In this document: positions 11,621-44,428 of the stretch, in pieces
Layout: each line of letters starts with the position of its first letter
How positions within the stretch are numbered: position 1 is the first letter of the stretch
Assembly (NCBI GenBank): GCA_963774955.1
Contig: CAVZGV010000003.1
Span: 256,771-320,770 of the forward strand
DNA: 64,000 bases
Source: Candidatus Falkowbacteria bacterium
GTDB taxonomy: Bacteria; Patescibacteriota; Patescibacteriia; CAIXNZ01
Direction: 5' to 3'
Translations under genes and position numbers: made by a program
Notes under the pieces: generated by a model
Told to the model about the DNA's origin: nothing
Database searches by the model: none
What the model saw: only the letters and a program-made list of their open reading frames with translations

Positions 11621-11765
11621 TACGAGGTGTATAGGTTAGGAATCTAGTTAAGTTAACGGTGTATTGTGTTGTACTATTCACTAAACACCTAACTTACATC
11701 TTAACCCTAATACTAAGCACCAATTATAAGATTATAAAAATTTGATTAGTTAATACTATCAATTT

Positions 11766-13890: not shown

Positions 13891-13946
13891 GATTAATTTG
13901 TAATTTAAGATTTGGGATTCGGAGATTATTTGGGATTTGGGATTTG
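13891..13946. repeat. Short tandem ATTTGGG repeats (4 units) preceded by AATTTGTAAT
   Basis: GATTTGGGATTCGGAGATTATTTGGGATTTGGGATTTGG lies immediately upstream of murJ. Confidence 0.4.
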
Positions 13947-15685: not shown

Positions 15686-15916
15686 ATGGATATTTTTTTA
15701 AATTGGGTTGCGAAGGTTTTGGTTTTTATTTTAGATTTGTTCCTTGGAAATCCGTCGGCAGCTGCAACGGAAGAAAAAAACAAAAAAAAGGTGCAGTCTG
15801 AGTCTCCTAAATCCGGAGCCAACTGCCATTTGTGTTCTCGCTGGGTCGATGATGCACATCCCAAAGGGGAATTTGTGGTTTGCGAACATTGTCTGACCCT
15901 CAAGCCGAGCCAATAG
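15686..15916 (+). CDS. Small membrane-anchored zinc-ribbon protein (hypothetical)
   Basis: Strong SD GGGAGGG lies 4 nt upstream of the ATG for MDIFLNW. The protein has an N-terminal TM and C-terminal CHLC...CEHC. Confidence 0.45.
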   Translation: MDIFLNWVAKVLVFILDLFLGNPSAAATEEKNKKKVQSESPKSGANCHLCSRWVDDAHPKGEFVVCEHCLTLKPSQ

Positions 15917-15927
15917 CTCGGCTTTTT
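15904..15927 (+). terminator. Rho-independent terminator
   Basis: GCCGAGC-CAATA-GCTCGGC followed by TTTTT. Confidence 0.55.
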
Positions 15928-16003
15928 AATTAATGCGAATGGCTAGATAAACTATTGGAACGAAAGTAATTTGAGGCATGCGAATGGGTTTATAAATGAA
16001 TGA

Positions 16004-16040
16004 AATTTGTAATTCGTAGATAATTTGTACATTTGTAGCT
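16004..16040. repeat. ATTTGTA motif cluster (3 copies) sharing two 10-mers with the 23225-23298 array
   Basis: AATTTGTAAT (16004-16013) and ATTTGTAGCT (16031-16040) are identical to 23261-23270 and 23272-23281. The cluster lies upstream of the 16115 gene. Confidence 0.35.
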
Positions 16041-16114
16041 TAACGTTTGACTTTCTTTCTTTGTTATGATAAATTTTAATTCAAAATCAGTACTTTTTAA
16101 AAGGGAGGTTAAGC

Positions 16115-16522
16115 ATGATAGATTATAATGAAAATGATTTAAGGGAATTTTTAGCAAGTTTAGGTTGGCCAGAAGAAATGATTGAAAAATGGTTTGAAGA
16201 AGTGAAGGCAAGACCACCTAATCCTGTGTTAGAAAAAATTGTAAGCATTGTGGCTGCAGTAAAGGAATATGTAGAAAAGCAACTAAATGAATTCTATGAT
16301 GACTTATATGTAAAGACTGGCAGAGGAACGCTTTTGCCTAGTGAGTGCATTGAGATTCTTTTGCCGTTTGAAATCGCAAAGGCCTGGATAGATCTAGAAA
16401 GAAAACCGTTGAATCAGCTTACACTTTGCGAAGGATATGTGGCAAAGGGTTGGAAAATGGTTTGGGTGGAAGAGAGGATAAATTCAAATGACAAAGAATT
16501 TGTCATTGTTTTTCAGGCTTAA
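16115..16522 (+). CDS. Hypothetical cytoplasmic protein
   Basis: 135-aa ORF with a strong SD (AAGGGAGG) 7 nt upstream. Its codon usage (AGA/AGG Arg, GAA-rich) looks different from neighbouring genes. I recognise no motifs. Confidence 0.5.
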   Translation: MIDYNENDLREFLASLGWPEEMIEKWFEEVKARPPNPVLEKIVSIVAAVKEYVEKQLNEFYDDLYVKTGRGTLLPSECIEILLPFEIAKAWIDLERKPLNQLTLCEGYVAKGWKMVWVEERINSNDKEFVIVFQA

Positions 16523-16576: not shown

Positions 16577-18451
16577 ATGAATTCGAGTAATATTCGCAAT
16601 TTCTGTATTATCGCGCATATTGATCACGGTAAGTCCACTTTGGCTGACCGTTTTTTGGAATTGACCGGGACTGTGGAAAAAAGGAATATGAAAGCTCAGA
16701 TTTTGGATGCTATGGATTTGGAACGGGAAAGGGGAATTACCATCAAACTTAACGCCTGTACAGATGAAATATCAGGAGTATGTTTTGAATTTAATTGATA
16801 CTCCCGGCCATGTTGATTTTACTTATGAAGTTTCGCGTTCTTTAGCTTGTGTTGAAGGGGCGATTCTTTTGGTTGACGCGACACAGGGTATTCAGGCTCA
16901 GACAATTGCCAATTTGTATTTGGCTCTGGAACAGAATTTAACCATTATTCCGGTTATTAATAAAATTGATTTGCCCAATGCCGAGGTAGACTAAAACTAA
17001 AATGGAAATTATTAATTTGCTGGGTTGTAAGGAAGATGAGATTTTAATGTGTTCAGCCAAAACAGGGGAGGGTGTCAAGGAAATTTTGGATGAGGTTATT
17101 AAAAAAGTTCCCGCACCATTGACTAACACAGTAAGAGCCTTTTCGCGCTTTAATTTTTGATTCTTTTTATGATGAATATAAAGGCGTGATTGTTTATGTT
17201 CGGGTTTTTGACGGAGAATTAAAAAAGGGTCAACCGATATACTTTTATTGCCAGTCAGACTATCAACCGAAACGTTGGAAGTGGGCAGTATGAGACATCA
17301 AATTAGTTCCCGATGAAATTTATGCAGCCGGTCAGATCGGTTATATTGTGACTGGTTTGAAAGAAGTGGAAAAATCTCGTGTCGGCGATACTATTACTTT
17401 AAAAGGTGCTAGAAGTTGAACCTTTGCCTGGTTATAAAGAAGTTCGGCCAATGGTTTTTGCCGGTATTTTTTGTAAAGAAGGCAGTGAATTTAATCAGTT
17501 TACGTGAAGCAGTCAATAAATTAAAATTAAATGATGCGGCTTTGTTTTTTGAACCGGAACATTCTTCAGCCTTGGGTTTTGGTTTTCGCTGCGGTTTTTT
17601 GGGCTTGCTGCATTTGGAAATTTTTCAGGAACGATTAAAGCGGGAATTTAATTTGGATTTAATTGTGACAGTGCCTAGTGTTGGCTTATAAAGTAACTTT
17701 AAAATCAGCAGGTTTGAAAAAGGAACTGGAAGCCAAATTAAAAAGCCGGGACTTTTTGGCAGAAAATTTGGAAGCTAATCAGATTGTTATTAAAAGTCCG
17801 ATTGATTTACCAGATCCAAATTATATTGAAAAAATTGAAGAACCAATGATTAAAGTTGATATTGTTTCGCCCAAGGATTTTATGGGCGGTATTATGCAGT
17901 TAGTGGCGGAAAAACGAGGTGAATATATTAATACTGAATATCTGTATGTCAGTAGCTGAAATTGATCAGCGGGTGATTTTGCATTATAAAATGCCCTTGG
18001 CTTCAATTTTGACTGATTTTTACGATAAATTAAAAAGTCTTAGTTCTGGTTATGCTTCTTTGAATTATGAATTTATGCGGTTATCAACAGGCTGAAGTTG
18101 AACGTTTGGATATTTTTGTGGCAGAAGAAATAGTAGAATCATTGGCAATTATTGTTTATAAAGATGATGCTTATAAGGTCGGCAAAAAAATAGTTGAATA
18201 CTCTGAAAGAAAGTCTGCCCAAACAATGGTTTGTGGTTAAATTGCAAGCAGCAGTTGGCGGTAAGATTATGGCCAGTGAACGTTTGGGCGCTTATCGTAA
18301 AGATGTGATTGCCAAGCTTTATGGTGGTGATGTTACCCGTAAAAATAAACTTTTGGATAAACAGAAAAAAGGCAAAAAGAAAATGGCCGAACTCGGCGCC
18401 GGGTCAGTGGATATTCCGACCGAGACATTTTTGAAAATATTGAAGCGATAG
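16577..18451 (+). pseudogene. lepA: lepA (elongation factor 4) pseudogene, fragmented by at least 6 frameshifts or stops
   Basis: Successive ORF fragments in different frames match LepA in order: G1 [12 protein letters not shown]...ERERGITIK (16577-16798), G3/G4 [17 protein letters not shown]...[12 protein letters not shown]...NKIDLP (16707-16994), CSAKTGEGV (frame 1), [33 protein letters not shown] (17416-17691), a domain IV fragment (17678-17959) and the C-terminal [24 protein letters not shown] (18194-18451). A 1-nt shift is visible near 16755 and another near 16992. Confidence 0.8.
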
Positions 18452-20501: not shown

Positions 20502-20526
20502 TTCGGAATCACAAAAAAAATTCACT

Positions 20527-20562
20527 AAAAACACGAAAATAGCTTTCGTGTTTTTTCGTGAT
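20527..20562. repeat. CACGAAAA-motif palindrome (AAAACACGAAAATAGCTTTCGTGTTTT + TTTTCGTGAT)
   Basis: Perfect inverted repeat ACACGAAA/TTTCGTGT followed by a third copy of TTTCGTG. It is related to the TIRs at 35707 and 36157 and to the motif at 44242. Confidence 0.5.
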
Positions 20563-20596
20563 AAAGATTTAGTGGTTCAGTTATCCTTGCAATTAT

Positions 20597-20634
20597 AAAA
20601 CCCCGAGGAACAAGTCCGCGGGGCTTTGGTTTTT
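20597..20634. terminator. Bidirectional terminator between recJ and the convergent 833-aa gene
   Basis: Hairpin CCCCGAGG...CCGCGGGG flanked by AAAA and TTTGGTTTTT. Confidence 0.5.
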
Positions 20635-23134
20635 AATCCTCGTCAGGATCGCTGCCGACAAAGAAGGTGTGAAATTCTCGATCAACAATTTTTGCTCCTG
20701 ATTTGAGGTCACCGCCCATTGAATCCGAATATTCGAATTCGTTGAGTGACGGCGGTAATTCCAGACGCAGGGTTCTGGTTTTGATCTTGGACTTGGGTAG
20801 GACCTCTTTGAGCAGGTCTACCAGTTCCTGGTCCTTGACTGCAATCATTACCGGTAAATCATTATCCCTGCTGATTTTGCCGGCTTTGGCTATCAGCCAT
20901 TGCAGCATGCCGATGCCGATCTCCCTGGACCAGGCTTTGCAGTACGGCCTTTCCATCAAAAGCAGGGGAATGGTTTCCTTATCCGTGTGGCCGTATTCAA
21001 ACGGCAAGAGGCGCATAATGCTGCGGCCAATGATGTCAAAATGATTATTTCTGATCCACAGTACTCGTTTGTTGGCATCAACCACATAAGCCGCCAGGCA
21101 TTGATTATGACCAGTCCATTCGTGCCAGCGTTGACAGCTTTGAACAGGTAAAGTACCGACTTTCATCAGCTCATAAGGCTTATCACTGTCTTCAAAGGTC
21201 AGATGCGAGATAGCTGAAGTGTCAGTGCTATTGAGCAGCTCAATAATTTGCTGCGTCAATTCTTTGGCTTCGGACGTGCCCAGCTTCTGAGCAATTTGGG
21301 ATAAATGACGCTGGATGTCTTTGAGCATTGTAACCGTGATCGCATTGATTTTCAACAACTCGCAGATGATTTTGATCAGGCCATATTCTTTTTTGATCTG
21401 ACCGAGTCTGGCGCCAATTTGCTTACGCTCTTCGGGAGACAAATCAGTGCCTCTGAGTTTCTTAACAAGATCTTCGTTTTCAGCGTCAATATCTGAGGTG
21501 ACTGGCTTGCCCGTGTGTTTTTCCCAGAGTACAGCTAGTTGTCCGGCTAAACGTTGGATAGCGTTGAGGCGCTGCTGGAGCGCGTCTGTCAGTCCGACAA
21601 TCATGGCATGCCGATGATCATCTTTCCACGCTTTCGGATTTGACAAGAAGTTGATTTGTTTGCCACTTGTTTTGTTACTGTAGCGCCAATGGTCAAAATG
21701 CTTGGCCATGGCTTGTTTGAGTGTTTCTGAGGCCAGCTCGGCCCCGCGCTCATAGCCATTGGCTTTGCATAATGAGGCATAGGTAAAGCACATTTCCAGC
21801 AGACCGTTTCTAGCCACAAGCTGCCAGATGTTATCCTGGGTCAGCAGGTTTAATTCTTCATCACTAAGATTAAGAATCTTTTTGTACATGGCTTTGGTTC
21901 CGTTTTCAACTTGGTAAACCAGATCTTCCATGGAAGCGCAATCAGCCGGATAGTTTAGATCCGATCTGGAACGAAGGCTAAGCATCTCAATGGCTTGTAA
22001 GCCCCGCAATAATTCCTCGCAGGAATTGGCCAGACTGATGAAATGACACAGTGATTTTTCAGCCTGCCCGGCATAGCGGAAGATATTCAGACAGCGCCAC
22101 AGCAATCTCTTGTCATCGCGTGACTTCTGGAAATGCTTGTCCGTGGTCAGCTCTTCCAGCTTGGCAATGATCTCTCGGGCCTGAGGCATTTCAAACTGAT
22201 ATTTGGTCAGAATGAGAAAGCCCAGACTCAGGGGCAGATTTTTCAGCGCTTGCAGCAGTTCCAGCCGTTCTGGCTGCTCGAAACATTGTTGCCAATCGAG
22301 ACTGCTTAGTGGATAGTCTATCAGGCTGCCGGCTTTGTAGTGGATGTTTTGCAGGATGACGGTAATGGCAAAACAGAATTTATCAGCTGTGTTTAGACAG
22401 GCTTGGATATCTTCAAGTTGCATTTTGAGCTGATCAAAATCCTTGGCTGAATTCTTGGTTTCTTTGGCCAGGTACGCAAGCAGGGAAGTGACCTCAGTCA
22501 GGGATAATCTTTGCAGAAAAAACGGGACCAGCTCGATGATGGCCGCAATATCATTGCCGGCGCCATCTTGATGCAGGGTTAAGAGGCTCCAGAATGCGTT
22601 CTGATAGTCTCTTTCGTTTAGACAATCATCCGCTGTATGCTCGGATAATTTATTTTGGTACGATTGCCAAATTGAGGAAGGCAGAGCATTGGCATGAGCC
22701 ATGGCCAAACTTAATTTGATGACCAAAAGCTGCCAGCTTCTCCAGTTTAGATATGTATCTTCCAGACATGAATTTTGCGGGCAGTGATCTGTCAGGTTAA
22801 GTAATGCCTGGGCCAATTCTGGAAGGCGGACTTGGCTGCGCATTTTGGGGCTTAGATTACCGCGCGAAGAAAATTTCGGTTTGACTGCTTTGGCCGTACT
22901 TTCTTTGGCCAGAAACTGTTTCCAGTCCTCAAAGGCAGAAAAACCTTTATTCAGCAGTTTCTGGTATCTTTCCAGCTGAAAGATTTCATAAAGAGCTTCT
23001 TTGTTGCCGTCATTCAGCAACCCCAGCTGTATTCCCAAATTTTGAGCCAGCACAAGACGTTGTTCTAAGCGCTGTTCTAACCTTGCCTCTTGCCGTAATT
23101 CCGGCCGGCAACACATCATAAGACCTAGTGCCAT
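20633..23134 (-). CDS. Large (833 aa) predominantly alpha-helical hypothetical protein, first gene of the high-GC island
   Basis: Long ORF with high-GC codon usage (CTG, GCC, CAG). It contains no Walker, HxH, GGDEF or other motifs I can recognise and has an acidic C-terminus (VGSDPDED). Confidence 0.6.
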   Translation of the reverse strand: MALGLMMCCRPELRQEARLEQRLEQRLVLAQNLGIQLGLLNDGNKEALYEIFQLERYQKLLNKGFSAFEDWKQFLAKESTAKAVKPKFSSRGNLSPKMRSQVRLPELAQALLNLTDHCPQNSCLEDTYLNWRSWQLLVIKLSLAMAHANALPSSIWQSYQNKLSEHTADDCLNERDYQNAFWSLLTLHQDGAGNDIAAIIELVPFFLQRLSLTEVTSLLAYLAKETKNSAKDFDQLKMQLEDIQACLNTADKFCFAITVILQNIHYKAGSLIDYPLSSLDWQQCFEQPERLELLQALKNLPLSLGFLILTKYQFEMPQAREIIAKLEELTTDKHFQKSRDDKRLLWRCLNIFRYAGQAEKSLCHFISLANSCEELLRGLQAIEMLSLRSRSDLNYPADCASMEDLVYQVENGTKAMYKKILNLSDEELNLLTQDNIWQLVARNGLLEMCFTYASLCKANGYERGAELASETLKQAMAKHFDHWRYSNKTSGKQINFLSNPKAWKDDHRHAMIVGLTDALQQRLNAIQRLAGQLAVLWEKHTGKPVTSDIDAENEDLVKKLRGTDLSPEERKQIGARLGQIKKEYGLIKIICELLKINAITVTMLKDIQRHLSQIAQKLGTSEAKELTQQIIELLNSTDTSAISHLTFEDSDKPYELMKVGTLPVQSCQRWHEWTGHNQCLAAYVVDANKRVLWIRNNHFDIIGRSIMRLLPFEYGHTDKETIPLLLMERPYCKAWSREIGIGMLQWLIAKAGKISRDNDLPVMIAVKDQELVDLLKEVLPKSKIKTRTLRLELPPSLNEFEYSDSMGGDLKSGAKIVDREFHTFFVGSDPDED

Positions 23135-23224
23135 ATCGTCCTCCTATAAAGGGTTTTTAATTTTCAAGGATCCAAGTCCCCTGAATAGAGAAATTTAGCA
23201 TGTAAATTTAAAAAAGTCAATTGT

Positions 23225-23298
23225 AAGCTACAAATATACAAATAAATACAAATGACTACAAATTTGTAATAATTTGTAGCTGATTTGTATATTTGTAA
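23225..23298. promoter_or_regulatory. Palindromic array of 4 direct + 4 inverted TACAAAT heptamers in the promoter region of the 833-aa gene
   Basis: TACAAAT occurs at 23229, 23237, 23247 and 23257. ATTTGTA occurs at 23263, 23272, 23284 and 23292. The array is symmetric about ~23262 and lies 90-165 nt upstream of the start at 23134. Confidence 0.5.
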
Positions 23299-23304
23299 CA
23301 GAAT

Positions 23305-23345
23305 TAAAAAAGCCCCGCGTGGATTTGATCCATGGCGGGGTCTTT
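23305..23345. terminator. Bidirectional rho-independent terminator
   Basis: AAAAAAG-CCCCGCGTGGAT-TTG-ATCCATGGCGGGG-TCTTTTGTT. Confidence 0.55.
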
Positions 23346-23353
23346 TGTTATTT

Positions 23354-23695
23354 CTAGGCTGCCTTGCTATCTTTGTTTTTTTCCATAGCCGGGAAAGGGA
23401 CAATCTCTGCAAATTCGATTGGCAGTAGGTTGTTGTCAATCCAGCTCTCGGAAAAGCCCTGGCTCTGCAACCAGCGCCGGCGATGGCCTTCATCTTGAAA
23501 GAGGAGCAGGTCATTGCCGTGGTTCAGATAGCGAGGAGCCATGCCCAGACGGAGCAGACCGTTGCAGAATGCTGATTTTATCCGCTGCGGATCAATTAAG
23601 CTCCGATGCGGATAACAGCTGATCTGAGTTTGACTGTCGACTACCTCCAGTTTTTCAACCTCGGAGGAGCAACGCGCAATTTCCCAAAATTCCAT
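23354..23695 (-). CDS. Small hypothetical protein (113 aa), paralog-like to the upstream gene
   Basis: AGGAGG lies 6 nt upstream of the ATG at 23695 (MEFWEIARC...). It shares a [FW]LQxxGF motif with the upstream small protein. The track ORF is extended upstream. Confidence 0.5.
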   Translation of the reverse strand: MEFWEIARCSSEVEKLEVVDSQTQISCYPHRSLIDPQRIKSAFCNGLLRLGMAPRYLNHGNDLLLFQDEGHRRRWLQSQGFSESWIDNNLLPIEFAEIVPFPAMEKNKDSKAA

Positions 23696-23708
23696 AATTG
23701 TCCTCCTT

Positions 23709-24017
23709 TTAGGCGGCTTGGGCCAGGCATTTGCCGGCGCACTGCACGCAGTATGGCTGGCAGGGAAGCTGGCCAGGCAGTTTGTCAAAGCCGTTTTGGA
23801 GAAAAAATTTTTCAATTTCCTCCATGCTTTTGCCGATGATGACTGGTTGGTTGTCCACTACTTCCAAGAAGATTCCGTCTCCGCAGATGCTTCTGGGAGT
23901 AATGTCATAGCGGACGTCTTTGGGTTTGTACAGCGGGTTGGTTGTCTGGTTCAAGATGGTAAACATCAGCCAGACTCCCAGATTACTGACGCGCAAAATC
24001 CTCTGGCTAATCGGCAT
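23709..24017 (-). CDS. Small hypothetical protein (102 aa) with a C-terminal Cys cluster
   Basis: AGGAG lies upstream of the ATG at 24017 (MPISQRIL...). The C-terminus reads CQPYCVQCAGKC. The stop is 13 nt before the next gene's start, so this is a two-gene operon. Confidence 0.5.
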   Translation of the reverse strand: MPISQRILRVSNLGVWLMFTILNQTTNPLYKPKDVRYDITPRSICGDGIFLEVVDNQPVIIGKSMEEIEKFFLQNGFDKLPGQLPCQPYCVQCAGKCLAQAA

Positions 24018-28544: not shown

Positions 28545-28656
28545 GTGTGTTTTGGCGATTTTTATGGTATAATATAAATAGATTTTGGATTTTAGATCTT
28601 AGGTTCTAGTTAATAATCCAAAATCTATAATCTAAAACACTAAAATCTAAATTAAA

Positions 28657-33618: not shown

Positions 33619-35691
<2,073 letters not shown>

Positions 35692-35706
35692 TTACGAAAG
35701 TTGGAC

Positions 35707-36173
35707 ACGAAAAAACACGAAAAATTGATGGCGTAATAAAAAGTTAAAACAAAAGGTGAAAAAATATGGGGGAAATAATATATAAAGATTTGAGTTATCA
35801 AGTTATGGGATCAGTTTTTAGGGTATTTAAGAAGTTGGGCTTTGGTTATAGAGAAAAATATTATCAGAGAGCCATTGAGGAAGAATTAAAAATAGAAAAT
35901 CTGGGATATATTAAGGAATGTTGCGTGAAACTAGAATATAATGGGAGAATTATTGGTAGATATTTTATAGATTTCGTTATTGAAGATAAGATTGCCTTAG
36001 AGATTAAGATAGCAAAAGATTTTTACACAAAAGATGTTAAGCAACTTTTAAGTTATTTGAAGGCAAAAAAATTAAAATTAGGAATTCTTATAATTATTAC
36101 TAAAGATGGGATTAGATATAAGCGTTTTGTTAATTAATTAAATTTGAACTGCGTATTTCGTGTTTTTTCGTGA
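35707..36173. mobile_element. GxxExxY-protein cassette bounded by 17-bp perfect terminal inverted repeats (CACGAAAAAACACGAAA)
   Basis: The left arm (35707-35723) is the exact reverse complement of the right arm (36157-36173). Between them lies a single GxxExxY-family ORF. Related motifs occur at 20527 and 44242. Confidence 0.45.
35766..36137 (+). CDS. GxxExxY family protein
   Basis: GYREKYY matches the Gxx-E-xx-Y signature. The length (123 aa) and composition fit this family, which is often found as an insertion cargo (for example in 23S rRNA intervening sequences). Confidence 0.65.
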   Translation: MGEIIYKDLSYQVMGSVFRVFKKLGFGYREKYYQRAIEEELKIENLGYIKECCVKLEYNGRIIGRYFIDFVIEDKIALEIKIAKDFYTKDVKQLLSYLKAKKLKLGILIIITKDGIRYKRFVN

Positions 36174-36209
36174 TTATTATTTCGTGGTTCATAATAACCT
36201 AATAAAACT

Positions 36210-36527
36210 ATGCAAATCAACATCAAAGGTACCAATATGGATCTGACCCCGGCAATTAAAGATTATGTCAATGAAAAAGTCGGCAGTTTGGAAAAGTTTT
36301 TTGACCAGGCTATTATAGCCAGGGTAGATGTAGGTCGTACTTCCAACCATCACCAAAAGGGCGATGTGTTCCGCGCGGAAATAAATATGGATGTGCCCCA
36401 AAAGCATGTATTGCGGGCTGAGTCAGTTAAAGAAGATTTGTATTTAGCCATTAATGACGCTAAGGCTGATTTGGAACGTCAGATTAAAAAATATAAGGAA
36501 AAAATGCGGGGGAATGATAAATATTAA
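36210..36527 (+). CDS. hpf: Ribosome hibernation promoting factor (HPF/RaiA, short form)
   Basis: MQINIKGTNMDLTPAIKDYVNEKVGSLEKFF...RAEINMDVP...AINDAKADLERQIKKYKEK. Confidence 0.8.
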   Translation: MQINIKGTNMDLTPAIKDYVNEKVGSLEKFFDQAIIARVDVGRTSNHHQKGDVFRAEINMDVPQKHVLRAESVKEDLYLAINDAKADLERQIKKYKEKMRGNDKY

Positions 36528-44091: not shown

Positions 44092-44241
44092 CGGAAAAAG
44101 AAGGTTACAAACCCAGGGAAGTTAAGCCGGTTGATCTGGTTAAAAATGAGGAGATTGTCAATTTGGATGTCGGATTGAGTAAAAATTGATATCGGAATCA
44201 CCTGCCTACGCCAAGGCTTCGGCAGGCAGGCGGAAATTGAT

Positions 44242-44264
44242 TCACGAAAATACACGAAAACGAA
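44242..44264. repeat. CACGAAAA motif pair (TCACGAAAATACACGAAAACGAA)
   Basis: Third locus of the same motif family. It follows an imperfect hairpin (CCTGCC...GGCAGG, 44195-44232) downstream of giant gene 1. Confidence 0.4.
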
Positions 44265-44428
44265 TACTGGAACGAAAACTGGATTTAGTGTATTTCGTTA
44301 TAACTTTATAATTCATTTATCCAATATTAAAAGCTCCCATTATTGTGGTTGGAGGAGTTTTTATATTGGCGATTTTTATTTTGGCTAGTTTTAGCCAGAT
44401 GATATAATAAAATTGTAATCAAAGACAC

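Follow-up and report, generated by a model that had tools for sequence, protein, structure and literature searches.

The window considered here (the whole stretch of DNA analysed, 64,000 nt of Candidatus Falkowbacteria contig CAVZGV010000003.1) contains, near 23.2 kb, a symmetrical array of heptamers between a terminator and a promoter. Four exact copies of TACAAAT, beginning on the + strand at 23229, 23237, 23247, and 23257, are followed by four exact copies of the complement ATTTGTA, at 23262, 23272, 23283, and 23291. The whole array (23229-23297) can be written TACAAAT-a-TACAAAT-aaa-TACAAAT-gac-TACAAATTTGTA-ata-ATTTGTA-gctg-ATTTGTA-t-ATTTGTA, the innermost TACAAAT and ATTTGTA sharing 2 nt to give a centre of CAAATTTG. 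What this array might be, and how it relates to similar arrays elsewhere and to a family of small putative nuclease genes, is the subject of this account. Its immediate surroundings are:

20633-23134, - strand: the 833-aa gene that the array would serve; start at 23134, with AGGAGG ahead of the start
23192-23220, - strand: sigma-70-type promoter of the 833-aa gene; TTGACT at 23220-23215, 17 nt, then TGcTAAATT, with the -10 at 23197-23192
23229-23263, no strand: left arm of the array, 4 x TACAAAT; spacing 10, 10, 8 from inner to outer
23262-23297, no strand: right arm, 4 x ATTTGTA; spacing 10, 11, 8 from inner to outer, mirroring the left arm
23307-23346, - strand: intrinsic terminator hairpin of the upstream small-gene operon (genes at 23709-24017 and 23354-23698)

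The array occupies the gap between the terminator of this minus-strand operon and the promoter of the 833-aa gene, which puts it at about -44 to -112, counted from the inferred start site. A terminator scan near the array gave a single match (23327-23342), which is part of the 23307-23346 hairpin; the array itself was unmatched. The two arms are inverted, and their outermost 15 nt are 100% complementary.

An earlier note on this DNA had described the array as four TACAAAT plus four ATTTGTA copies, and all eight are indeed exact, far above the maximum of 2 copies per 80 bp in 200 simulated windows (first-order Markov). The window as a whole has 27 copies of the heptamer, against 17.9 ± 4.9 expected, and 8 of the 27 fall within the 69 bp of this array; a heptamer merely common by chance in AT-rich DNA, which the note had named as the outcome that would undo its case, is not what is seen. 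Outside arrays there is no enrichment in the window, 11 of the 27 copies belonging to the array at 23.2 kb and a second at 16.0 kb, and an uptake-signal-like sequence was ruled out for this reason. Two 10-mers that the note had reported as shared between these loci also recur as claimed: AATTTGTAAT at 13895, 16004, and 23261, and ATTTGTAGCT at 16031 and 23272 and, as the reverse complement, at 23226. The 16.0-kb locus comprises:

15902-15924: terminator upstream of the half array
16005-16037, + strand: half array, ATTTGTA at 16005, ATTCGTA at 16012, and ATTTGTA at 16023 and 16031; spacing 7, 11, 8
16047-16075, + strand: promoter of a 135-aa ORF; TTGACT, 17 nt, TGaTAAATT, with the array ending at about -45
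16115-16522, + strand: 135-aa open reading frame (ORF), no family match

Its order matches that at 23.2 kb (terminator, array, GTAGCTTA, promoter, gene), GTAGCTTA being the half-array terminus common to both arrays. Degenerate copies resembling a left arm (TGCGAAT twice and TATAAAT, at 15935-15997) lie beside the half array.

A Candidatus Parcubacteria contig (L001), the closest relative at about 80% nucleotide identity, allows a direct comparison. It encodes a homologue of the 833-aa protein with 57% amino-acid identity and keeps the order ackA, MurJ, lepA, recJ, 833-aa gene, small ORFs, VIT-VWA, PilZ, RNase H, and pilM, the flanking genes having about 76-84% DNA identity with those of the window. 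Because a relative has the same gene order, the higher-GC "island" ahead of whose first gene the earlier note had placed the array is not a recent insertion; the array does adjoin the promoter of the 833-aa gene, but that gene is on the minus strand. The intergenic alignment shows the terminator (95.8% identical over 48 nt), -35, -10, 5′ untranslated region (5′UTR), and gene start to be conserved. The array is not: the 74-bp region that holds it corresponds in L001 to about 125 bp of unrelated, CG-containing sequence, in which no heptamer occurs three or more times, with or without masking of the central base. No array was found upstream of the 39%-identical homologue in L003 either, and the 135-aa gene and its array are both absent from L001, which has a different small gene there. 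Since L001 keeps the terminator, promoter, and 5′UTR without the array, a conserved operator is not supported, and the array is evidently not needed for the promoter of the 833-aa gene. The other promoters of the window, in an intergenic survey, are canonical and without an array.

Similar arrays occur well beyond this window. One genome per species was scanned for three copies of ATTTGTA with gaps of 0-5 nt, and genome contigs gave at least 119 loci. Among the matches listed, 30 are labelled Patescibacteria (Candidate Phyla Radiation, CPR), far above their share of the sequence, and dyad arrays, with (TACRAAT)n followed by (ATTYGTA)n, make up 13 of these 30 CPR-labelled loci, 5 of 8 loci from unlabelled metagenome-assembled genomes (MAGs), and 9 of 81 others. 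Polarity in the same set is 32 to 2 in favor of (TACRAAT)n-gap-(ATTYGTA)n over the opposite arrangement. The nine dyad loci from other phyla, again among the matches listed, are mostly contiguous, with a 7-bp period, and come from Bacteroidota, Acidobacteriota, Chloroflexota, and Ignavibacteria. Contiguous versions were seen in L092, L027, L021, L030, L034, L055, L085, and L114, in the form (TACRAAT)3-5, an 18-95 bp gap, and (ATTYGTA)2-5; these arrays, all from non-CPR phyla, have the polarity found within the CPR, and several lie between convergent genes.

Within the CPR, the arms have a typical spacing of 7/8, 11, 8, mirrored on the opposite side, and the gap between them runs from -2 nt (an overlap, as in the window, L012, L031, and L048) to about 50 nt. 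These arrays fill entire intergenic regions, coming within 0-20 nt of the flanking genes, in co-directional, divergent, and convergent settings. A Berkelbacteria contig has them at tuf|rpsJ, rplC|rplD, and rplW|rplB, and another MAG at rplC|rplD and rplB|rpsS; they are also found at gene boundaries around pilB, pilT, and pilC. An operator specific to one regulon fits poorly with arrays that occupy unrelated intergenic regions of every orientation.

Three other candidates were set aside. A phage link was ruled out: the matching scan of viral contigs gave uniform tandem repeats only, with no dyad array of at least 3+3 among 120 loci. A promoter inside the central spacer of split arrays was ruled out as well, there being no consistent -10 in these spacers on the strand of the downstream gene. 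A Bacteroidetes-type -33/-7 promoter (TTTG...TAnnTTTG), which might be assembled from heptamer pairs spaced 8 bp apart, was seen by eye in some copies only and fails for convergent regions.

The same architecture is found around a gene. About 12 kb from the 23.2-kb array, between ligA (33631-35691) and hpf (36210-36527), the window has a cassette at 35693-36186:

35693-35722, no strand: left arm, TACGAAA, CACGAAA, CACGAAA; spacing 10, 13 from inner to outer
35766-36137, + strand: cargo gene for a 123-aa GxxExxY protein (TIGR04256, E = 2.9e-26; PF13366 PDDEXK_3, E = 1.5e-26)
36156-36186, no strand: right arm, 3 x TTTCGTG; spacing 10, 14 from inner to outer

L245 has an orthologous cassette (69% identity), likewise between ligA and hpf, whose left arm has changed to CACTAA while most of the right arm still reads TTCGTG. 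In L087, a 34%-identical GxxExxY gene lies between five copies of TACAAAT/TACGAAT and three of ATTTGTA plus one of ATTCGTA.

This bracketing was examined in 80 GxxExxY loci taken from Joint Genome Institute (JGI) metagenomes, testing 130-150 bp on each side (76 loci for exact 6-mers, 64 distinct loci with a masked central base). Mirrored exact 6-mers in at least 2+2 copies flank 32 of 76 GxxExxY genes, against 10 of 76 in direct orientation and 7 of 223 generic CPR ORFs; for at least 3+3 copies the figures are 10 of 76, 1 of 76, and 1 of 223, this last being the window's own cassette. When position 4 is masked (NNC-N-RAW), 49 of 64 loci have at least 2+2 copies, against none in the opposite polarity and 3 in direct orientation, and 30 of 64 have at least 3+3, against none and 1, respectively. 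The arm motifs have the general form NNC-N-RAW and include CACGAAA, CACTAAT, TACGAAT, TACTAAT, CACAGAA, GCGAAT, CCGAAT, and CTCTAAT, as well as TACAAAT itself, which is the arm motif at five GxxExxY loci. Their spacings are mirrored around the gene (e.g., 9,13|9,14; 17,7|17,7; 20,10|20,10; 8,12|8,12), and the inner copies lie close against the ORF, the median distances to the ATG and the stop codon being 12 and 9 nt, respectively. The spacing of the 23.2-kb array (10,10,8|10,11,8) resembles that of TAC-type arms around such genes in L286, L290, and L302 (9,10,8) and in L308 (8,12). The motif class also tracks relatedness of the GxxExxY proteins, if modestly: nearest neighbors share a class in 29 of 50 cases, where 16 would be expected.

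Copies with and without cargo are found side by side. In L263 and L264, ORF-less 3+3 copies with the same motif and spacing adjoin an ORF-bearing copy. Two further arrays in the window have a sister motif, CAC-N-AAA:

20510-20574, no strand: compact ORF-less 3+3 array, CACAAAA, CACTAAA, CACGAAA / TTTCGTG, TTTCGTG, TTTAGTG
44243-44290, no strand: partial CAC-type array, CACGAAA twice and then TTTAGTG, adjoining a cctgcc...ggcagg hairpin

The first of these directly follows the stop codon of recJ, with the terminator of the 833-aa gene on its other side. It has an inner-to-outer spacing of 9,13|10,14, where the arms of the window's GxxExxY cassette have 10,13|10,14; it also matches CAC-type arms around GxxExxY genes elsewhere. 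Judged by motif and layout, the window holds at least five members of the family: those at 16.0 (half or decayed), 20.5, 23.2, 35.7 (with cargo), and 44.2 kb (partial). The arrays at 20.5 and 23.2 kb flank the 833-aa gene at both ends. The inner pair of the 20.5-kb array (20527-20555) scores as a weak bidirectional terminator-like hairpin.

Inverted arms can pair as RNA or cruciform DNA, or can serve as oppositely oriented protein sites. Copies of the heptamer with one mismatch in GxxExxY loci differ at position 4 in 94 of 152 cases, every other position accounting for 1-23. Position 4 does not covary between mirrored copies of the GxxExxY arms: it is identical in 54 of 106 pairs, against 58 ± 3 in shuffles, and 45 of the 52 differences are transversions. 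Among ORF-less arrays, the mirrored spacers are complementary at 11 of 41 positions, the chance level for AT-rich DNA, and position-4 A/G variants put A.C on the transcribed strand about as often as G.U. No Rfam family covers the arrays, in the window or in 14 array-bearing loci. Because the spacing is mirrored while position 4 and most spacers fail to covary, the arms are better understood as protein sites on double-stranded DNA than as a hairpin; the heptamer thus behaves like a two-part protein site in which the central base goes unread.

The GxxExxY protein has the appearance of a nuclease. Residues E30, D69, E79, and K81 of its PD-(D/E)XK signature are invariant across homologues, and its AlphaFold2 model (predicted local distance difference test score, pLDDT, 94) resembles Cas4, lambda exonuclease, and other PD-(D/E)XK nucleases. 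The function of PF13366 is listed as unknown (PMC3424549), and it has no known transposase activity.

As defined here, the family consists of dyad-symmetric arrays of YAC-N-AAW with at least three heptamers per arm, the polarity site...complement, mirrored spacings of 7-14 bp, an intergenic position, and a cargo-bearing counterpart in the same genome; its arms have 3-5 copies of the 7-bp site, 7-14 bp apart. The 23.2-kb array is intergenic and has at least three heptamers in each arm, in this polarity and with mirrored spacing in this range. Our preferred reading, to which we would give a probability of roughly 0.55, is that it is a cargo-less copy of a dyad-symmetric heptamer-array element common in Patescibacteria. 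Most likely it represents an empty shell, or else a docking site, belonging to a very small selfish DNA element, and it is probably not a private switch for the neighboring gene.

On this reading each heptamer would be a double-stranded DNA site for one subunit of an oligomeric protein, which would load cooperatively on each arm; the two arms would then be handled as a pair at any distance, like the terminal inverted repeats of a transposon or the halves of a split homing site. Where no ORF is present, the copy would be a relic, a non-autonomous derivative, or a vacant target. Being encoded between such arms, the GxxExxY nuclease is the obvious candidate binder, and the best one at present. 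At 23.2 kb, the array may have settled in a permissive gap between terminator and promoter, where it might modulate the promoter without being required for it.

A more specific proposal can be put forward tentatively, as a possibility that we would not bet on: that the arrays are recognition and synapsis sites of GxxExxY (PF13366) PD-(D/E)XK nucleases. The minimal selfish element, of a class so far unrecognized, would then be a nuclease gene of about 120 aa between multi-heptamer inverted arrays whose central base is not read. The cargo-less copies would be homing targets or derivatives akin to miniature inverted-repeat transposable elements (MITEs), dispersed between genes and even within core operons in Patescibacteria, and present in other phyla as contiguous versions.

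Several observations weigh against the array being a copy of such an element. No target-site duplications or clean insertion junctions were found, nor any flanking direct repeat at the 23.2-kb array, and what L001 has in its place is not an empty site. Central spacers differ among array copies within one genome, so that recent transposition is unsupported. Both TACAAAT arrays in the window end at about -44/-45, that is, about 9-10 bp upstream of the TTGACT in a TTGACT-17-TGnTAAATT promoter, which makes a local effect on transcription possible; a purely selfish element would not be expected to show this shared placement, which might reflect either an insertion preference or a transcriptional effect that has been co-opted. 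The 23.2-kb array folds as a long hairpin (-24.2 kcal/mol for the + strand and -29.1 for the - strand, with z-scores of -6.5 and -8.6), and the spacers of GxxExxY arms are 58% complementary, pointing to some pairing or to shared descent of the arms; this figure is consistent with arms having descended from one another. The GxxExxY protein, at 123 aa, has no separate DNA-binding domain, and its structural neighbors are generic Cas4 and lambda-exonuclease folds. Finally, no GxxExxY gene with TACAAAT arms was found in the 64-kb window, where the one cassette has CACGAAA arms.

Among other explanations, a host chromosomal protein fares best, though we consider it unlikely. The heptamers would be sites for a nucleoid-associated, insulator-like, or boundary factor that recognizes AC-N-AA cores; the arrays would be primary, and GxxExxY genes would insert into, or home to, their centers. 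Such a factor would suit the numbers (about 35 ORF-less dyad arrays to 1 with cargo in the genome sample, among the matches listed) and the position of arrays at gene boundaries, including those of ribosomal-protein and pilus operons. Compact arrays with overlapping inner copies do resemble uninterrupted sites, and an unrelated family of small ORFs, PF05635, is likewise bracketed by inverted short repeats. A single host factor is harder to reconcile with the coexistence in this genome of TACAAAT and CACNAAA classes, which differ at positions 1 and 7 and are each homogeneous within an array, or with the many additional motif classes elsewhere. The tendency of motif class to follow GxxExxY relatedness (29 of 50, as above) also speaks against it, as does the absence of an array at the same boundary in the closest relative.

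The operator proposed in the earlier note comes next, and appears improbable. In this scheme, a dedicated transcription factor, dimeric or oligomeric, would use the array as its operator or as iterons and would co-regulate the 833-aa gene and the 135-aa gene at 16115. L001, although syntenic, lacks the array while conserving the promoter, 5′UTR, and terminator, and the L003 homologue has none upstream; conservation in related genomes, which the note had looked to, is thus not borne out. Elsewhere the arrays lie beside dozens of unrelated genes, in convergent regions, or so close against start codons that a promoter could not fit between. Among the ORFs neighboring the array, Pfam and NCBIfam gave no DNA-binding regulator and no ribbon-helix-helix (RHH) match. 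These points tell more heavily than the similar placement of the two arrays (9-10 bp upstream of the -35, both ending in ATTTGTAGCTTA), the 10-11 bp phase of the sites along each arm, which would put them on one helix face, or the fact that both genes are lineage-specific. Co-regulation of these two genes is thus not supported, the array being unconserved and its kind filling unrelated intergenic regions. What does survive of the operator-like architecture for an oligomeric protein is a set of multiple double-stranded DNA sites, with conserved heptamers, mirrored spacing, and free spacers and central base. The note's other suggestion, that the two loci are relics of a single element, comes close to the evidence, except that they would be two copies from one family rather than the remains of one element.

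It is quite improbable, for the reasons of pairing already given, that the array is a nucleic-acid hairpin or cruciform, whether as a terminator, as an RNase III stem like those of rRNA intervening sequences, or as a stem stabilizing mRNA in the manner of repetitive extragenic palindromic (REP) sequences. The strong predicted folds quoted above and the terminator-like score of 20527-20555 would fit, as would the frequency of arrays between co-transcribed genes and the bracketing of small ORFs of kinds known from rRNA intervening sequences. However, mirrored differences at position 4 are uncompensated and largely transversions, A.C mismatches are as frequent as G.U pairs, and ORF-less spacers pair at the level of chance. 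The 23.2-kb stem is A/U-rich, each heptamer contributing only one G-C pair, and lacks an adjacent U-tract; next to it there is already a proper intrinsic terminator, and Rfam gave no match. Curved DNA or an UP-like promoter booster, or a neutral low-complexity sequence made by slippage, is very improbable: the array does extend over -44 to -112, its A/T tracts in phase at intervals of about 10 bp, and other short-motif arrays occur in intergenic regions of this genome, L099, and L001, but neither curvature nor slippage predicts conservation of positions 1-3 and 5-7 with position 4 free, the exact heptamer recurs in distant Patescibacteria with mirrored spacing and a polarity of 32 to 2 (among the matches listed), and most canonical promoters of the window have no such array.

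No known system fits the heptamer arrays fully. The nearest kinds are multi-site transposon ends and MITEs, REPs and bacterial interspersed mosaic elements (BIMEs), RHH heptad operators, and intervening-sequence or homing cassettes. Transposon ends with multiple subterminal sites (Tn7 TnsB sites, Mu ends, IS21-type) likewise have inverted arms, each with 3-5 short, protein-sized sites, and several further features are shared: an arm geometry that is the same at a separation of 5 bp as at one of about 450 bp, the coexistence of copies with and without cargo, an intergenic location, and presence that differs between close relatives. The sites here are, however, only 7 bp long, and their central base is unread; the cargo, a 123-aa PD-(D/E)XK protein, is not a transposase of the DDE, serine, or tyrosine type, the copies show no conserved internal sequence, and no target-site duplication or transposition event was seen. 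REPs and BIMEs (also enterobacterial repetitive intergenic consensus, ERIC, Correia, and repeat unit of pneumococcus, RUP-type, elements) are similarly short, palindromic, and strain-variable, with many copies per genome between genes, including within operons and between convergent pairs. REPs, though, are single imperfect palindromes of 20-40 nt, partly forming RNA stems and linked to REP-associated tyrosine transposases (RAYTs), whereas the heptamer arms are iterated and do not preserve pairing, and the gene that goes with them is GxxExxY.

Operators of RHH proteins (omega of pSM19035, MetJ boxes, ParG/ParR) also have 7-bp sites, direct and inverted, upstream of promoters, and cooperative binding by many dimers is a feature of RHH systems. 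Omega heptads (WATCACW) are strictly contiguous, with the repressor gene adjacent, while spacing in the present family is 7-14 bp, and 8-11 bp in the 23.2-kb array; the arms here can also have a whole gene between them, the arrays are dispersed among the spacers of housekeeping genes, and no RHH gene was found among the neighboring ORFs. No match is known, in sequence or architecture, to the operator consensus of CtsR, PhoP/WalR, Fur/Zur 7-1-7, or MraZ.

Intervening sequences (IVS) in rRNA and free-standing homing-endonuclease genes share with the GxxExxY cassettes a small ORF of selfish-type family tightly bracketed by inverted repeats, and an IVS-protein ORF of PF05635 in L056 is similarly placed. 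IVS stems are RNase III substrates; here base pairing is not maintained, and the elements are found between protein-coding genes instead of in rRNA. A compact palindromic site split by an ORF has the geometry expected of a homing site, but homing would here be directed at a repeated array, not at a unique conserved gene, and both cleavage and homing would be conjectural. The L056 ORF (2223-2591; "23S rRNA intervening sequence protein," a four-helix bundle, E = 1.5e-14) is bracketed by inverted TTTTGAAT/ATTCAAAA arrays, making PF05635 a second small-ORF family with an inverted-repeat bracket like that of GxxExxY.

TIGR-Tas systems also have short interspaced repeats in CPR bacteria beside an unannotated protein. 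TIGR arrays consist of two alternating repeats of 8-12 nt with 9-nt spacers, a 36-nt period, and one orientation, beside a Nop-domain Tas protein (Faure et al., 2025, PMC12045711). A TIGR-Tas array was ruled out here, its defining features being absent: there is one heptamer, with 1-4 nt spacers and mirror symmetry, and the 833-aa protein has no Nop domain.

A search of the accessible literature, where GxxExxY is named in only three papers, found no description of heptamer arrays in CPR bacteria or of the GxxExxY bracket, and the family is apparently undescribed. The genomes of Patescibacteria are very small and dense, and very few regulators or mobile elements are known from them; a conserved, polar, protein-site-like repeat filling many of their intergenic gaps would be either a major unrecognized cis-element or a very successful selfish one. 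The link to GxxExxY would give PF13366/TIGR04256, a large family listed as "unknown" since 2012, its first testable function, with a concrete DNA substrate. For annotation, such arrays should not be taken for gene-specific operators. The interest of the 23.2-kb array lies more in this family-level pattern than in the single copy.

The 833-aa protein has no Pfam or NCBIfam match. It has two close homologues and 216 remote representatives at E <= 1e-3, and by sequence similarity is part of a larger uncharacterized family. The conserved part corresponds to residues about 300-830 and often forms the C-terminus of homologues of 1000-1400 aa; eight remote homologues gave no informative Pfam domain (none in seven, and a sub-threshold HBB match in one). 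The 5′UTR of its gene (23135-23191; 9930-10000 in L001) is highly conserved between the window and L001, and contains an inverted repeat, CTATTCAGGGG...CCCTTTATAG, which overlaps the Shine-Dalgarno region and may form a translational leader hairpin. The small ORFs upstream of the array (23354-24017; 114 and 102 aa) and the three in L001 (8432-9720) have Cys-rich C-termini and no family match, and they diverge much faster than the flanking housekeeping genes.

Other short-motif arrays occupy intergenic regions of the window at 28545-28656, 13903-13943, and 11621-11765 (TAGATTTT/AAAATCTA, GATTTGGGAT, and TTAGG/CCTAA-like), and seem to be a general trait of spacers in this genome. In the S10 operon of the Berkelbacteria contig L099 (5150-5357 and 3399-3608), the symmetric architecture is built from other motifs as well: the rpsJ|rplC spacer has about four copies of AAAGT and about four of ACTTT around a central gap, and the fusA|tuf spacer has CGTATAACGTAT-type repeats. 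GC-rich hairpins of the form cctgcctgccggcagg were seen beside or inside heptamer arrays in L087 (7783-7800), L068 (about 1240-1290), and the window (44195-44235), and may be a second small repeat traveling with them.

The lepA gene next to the 135-aa ORF (16577-18451) is broken by several frameshifts and stop codons, while the L001 copy, with about 82% DNA identity, is intact at 620 aa. Because the neighboring genes are intact, it looks like a real pseudogene rather than an assembly error. The last 27 kb of the window (36634-64000) is taken up by four consecutive giant ORFs on the + strand, of 2485, 2552, 2287, and more than 1603 aa.

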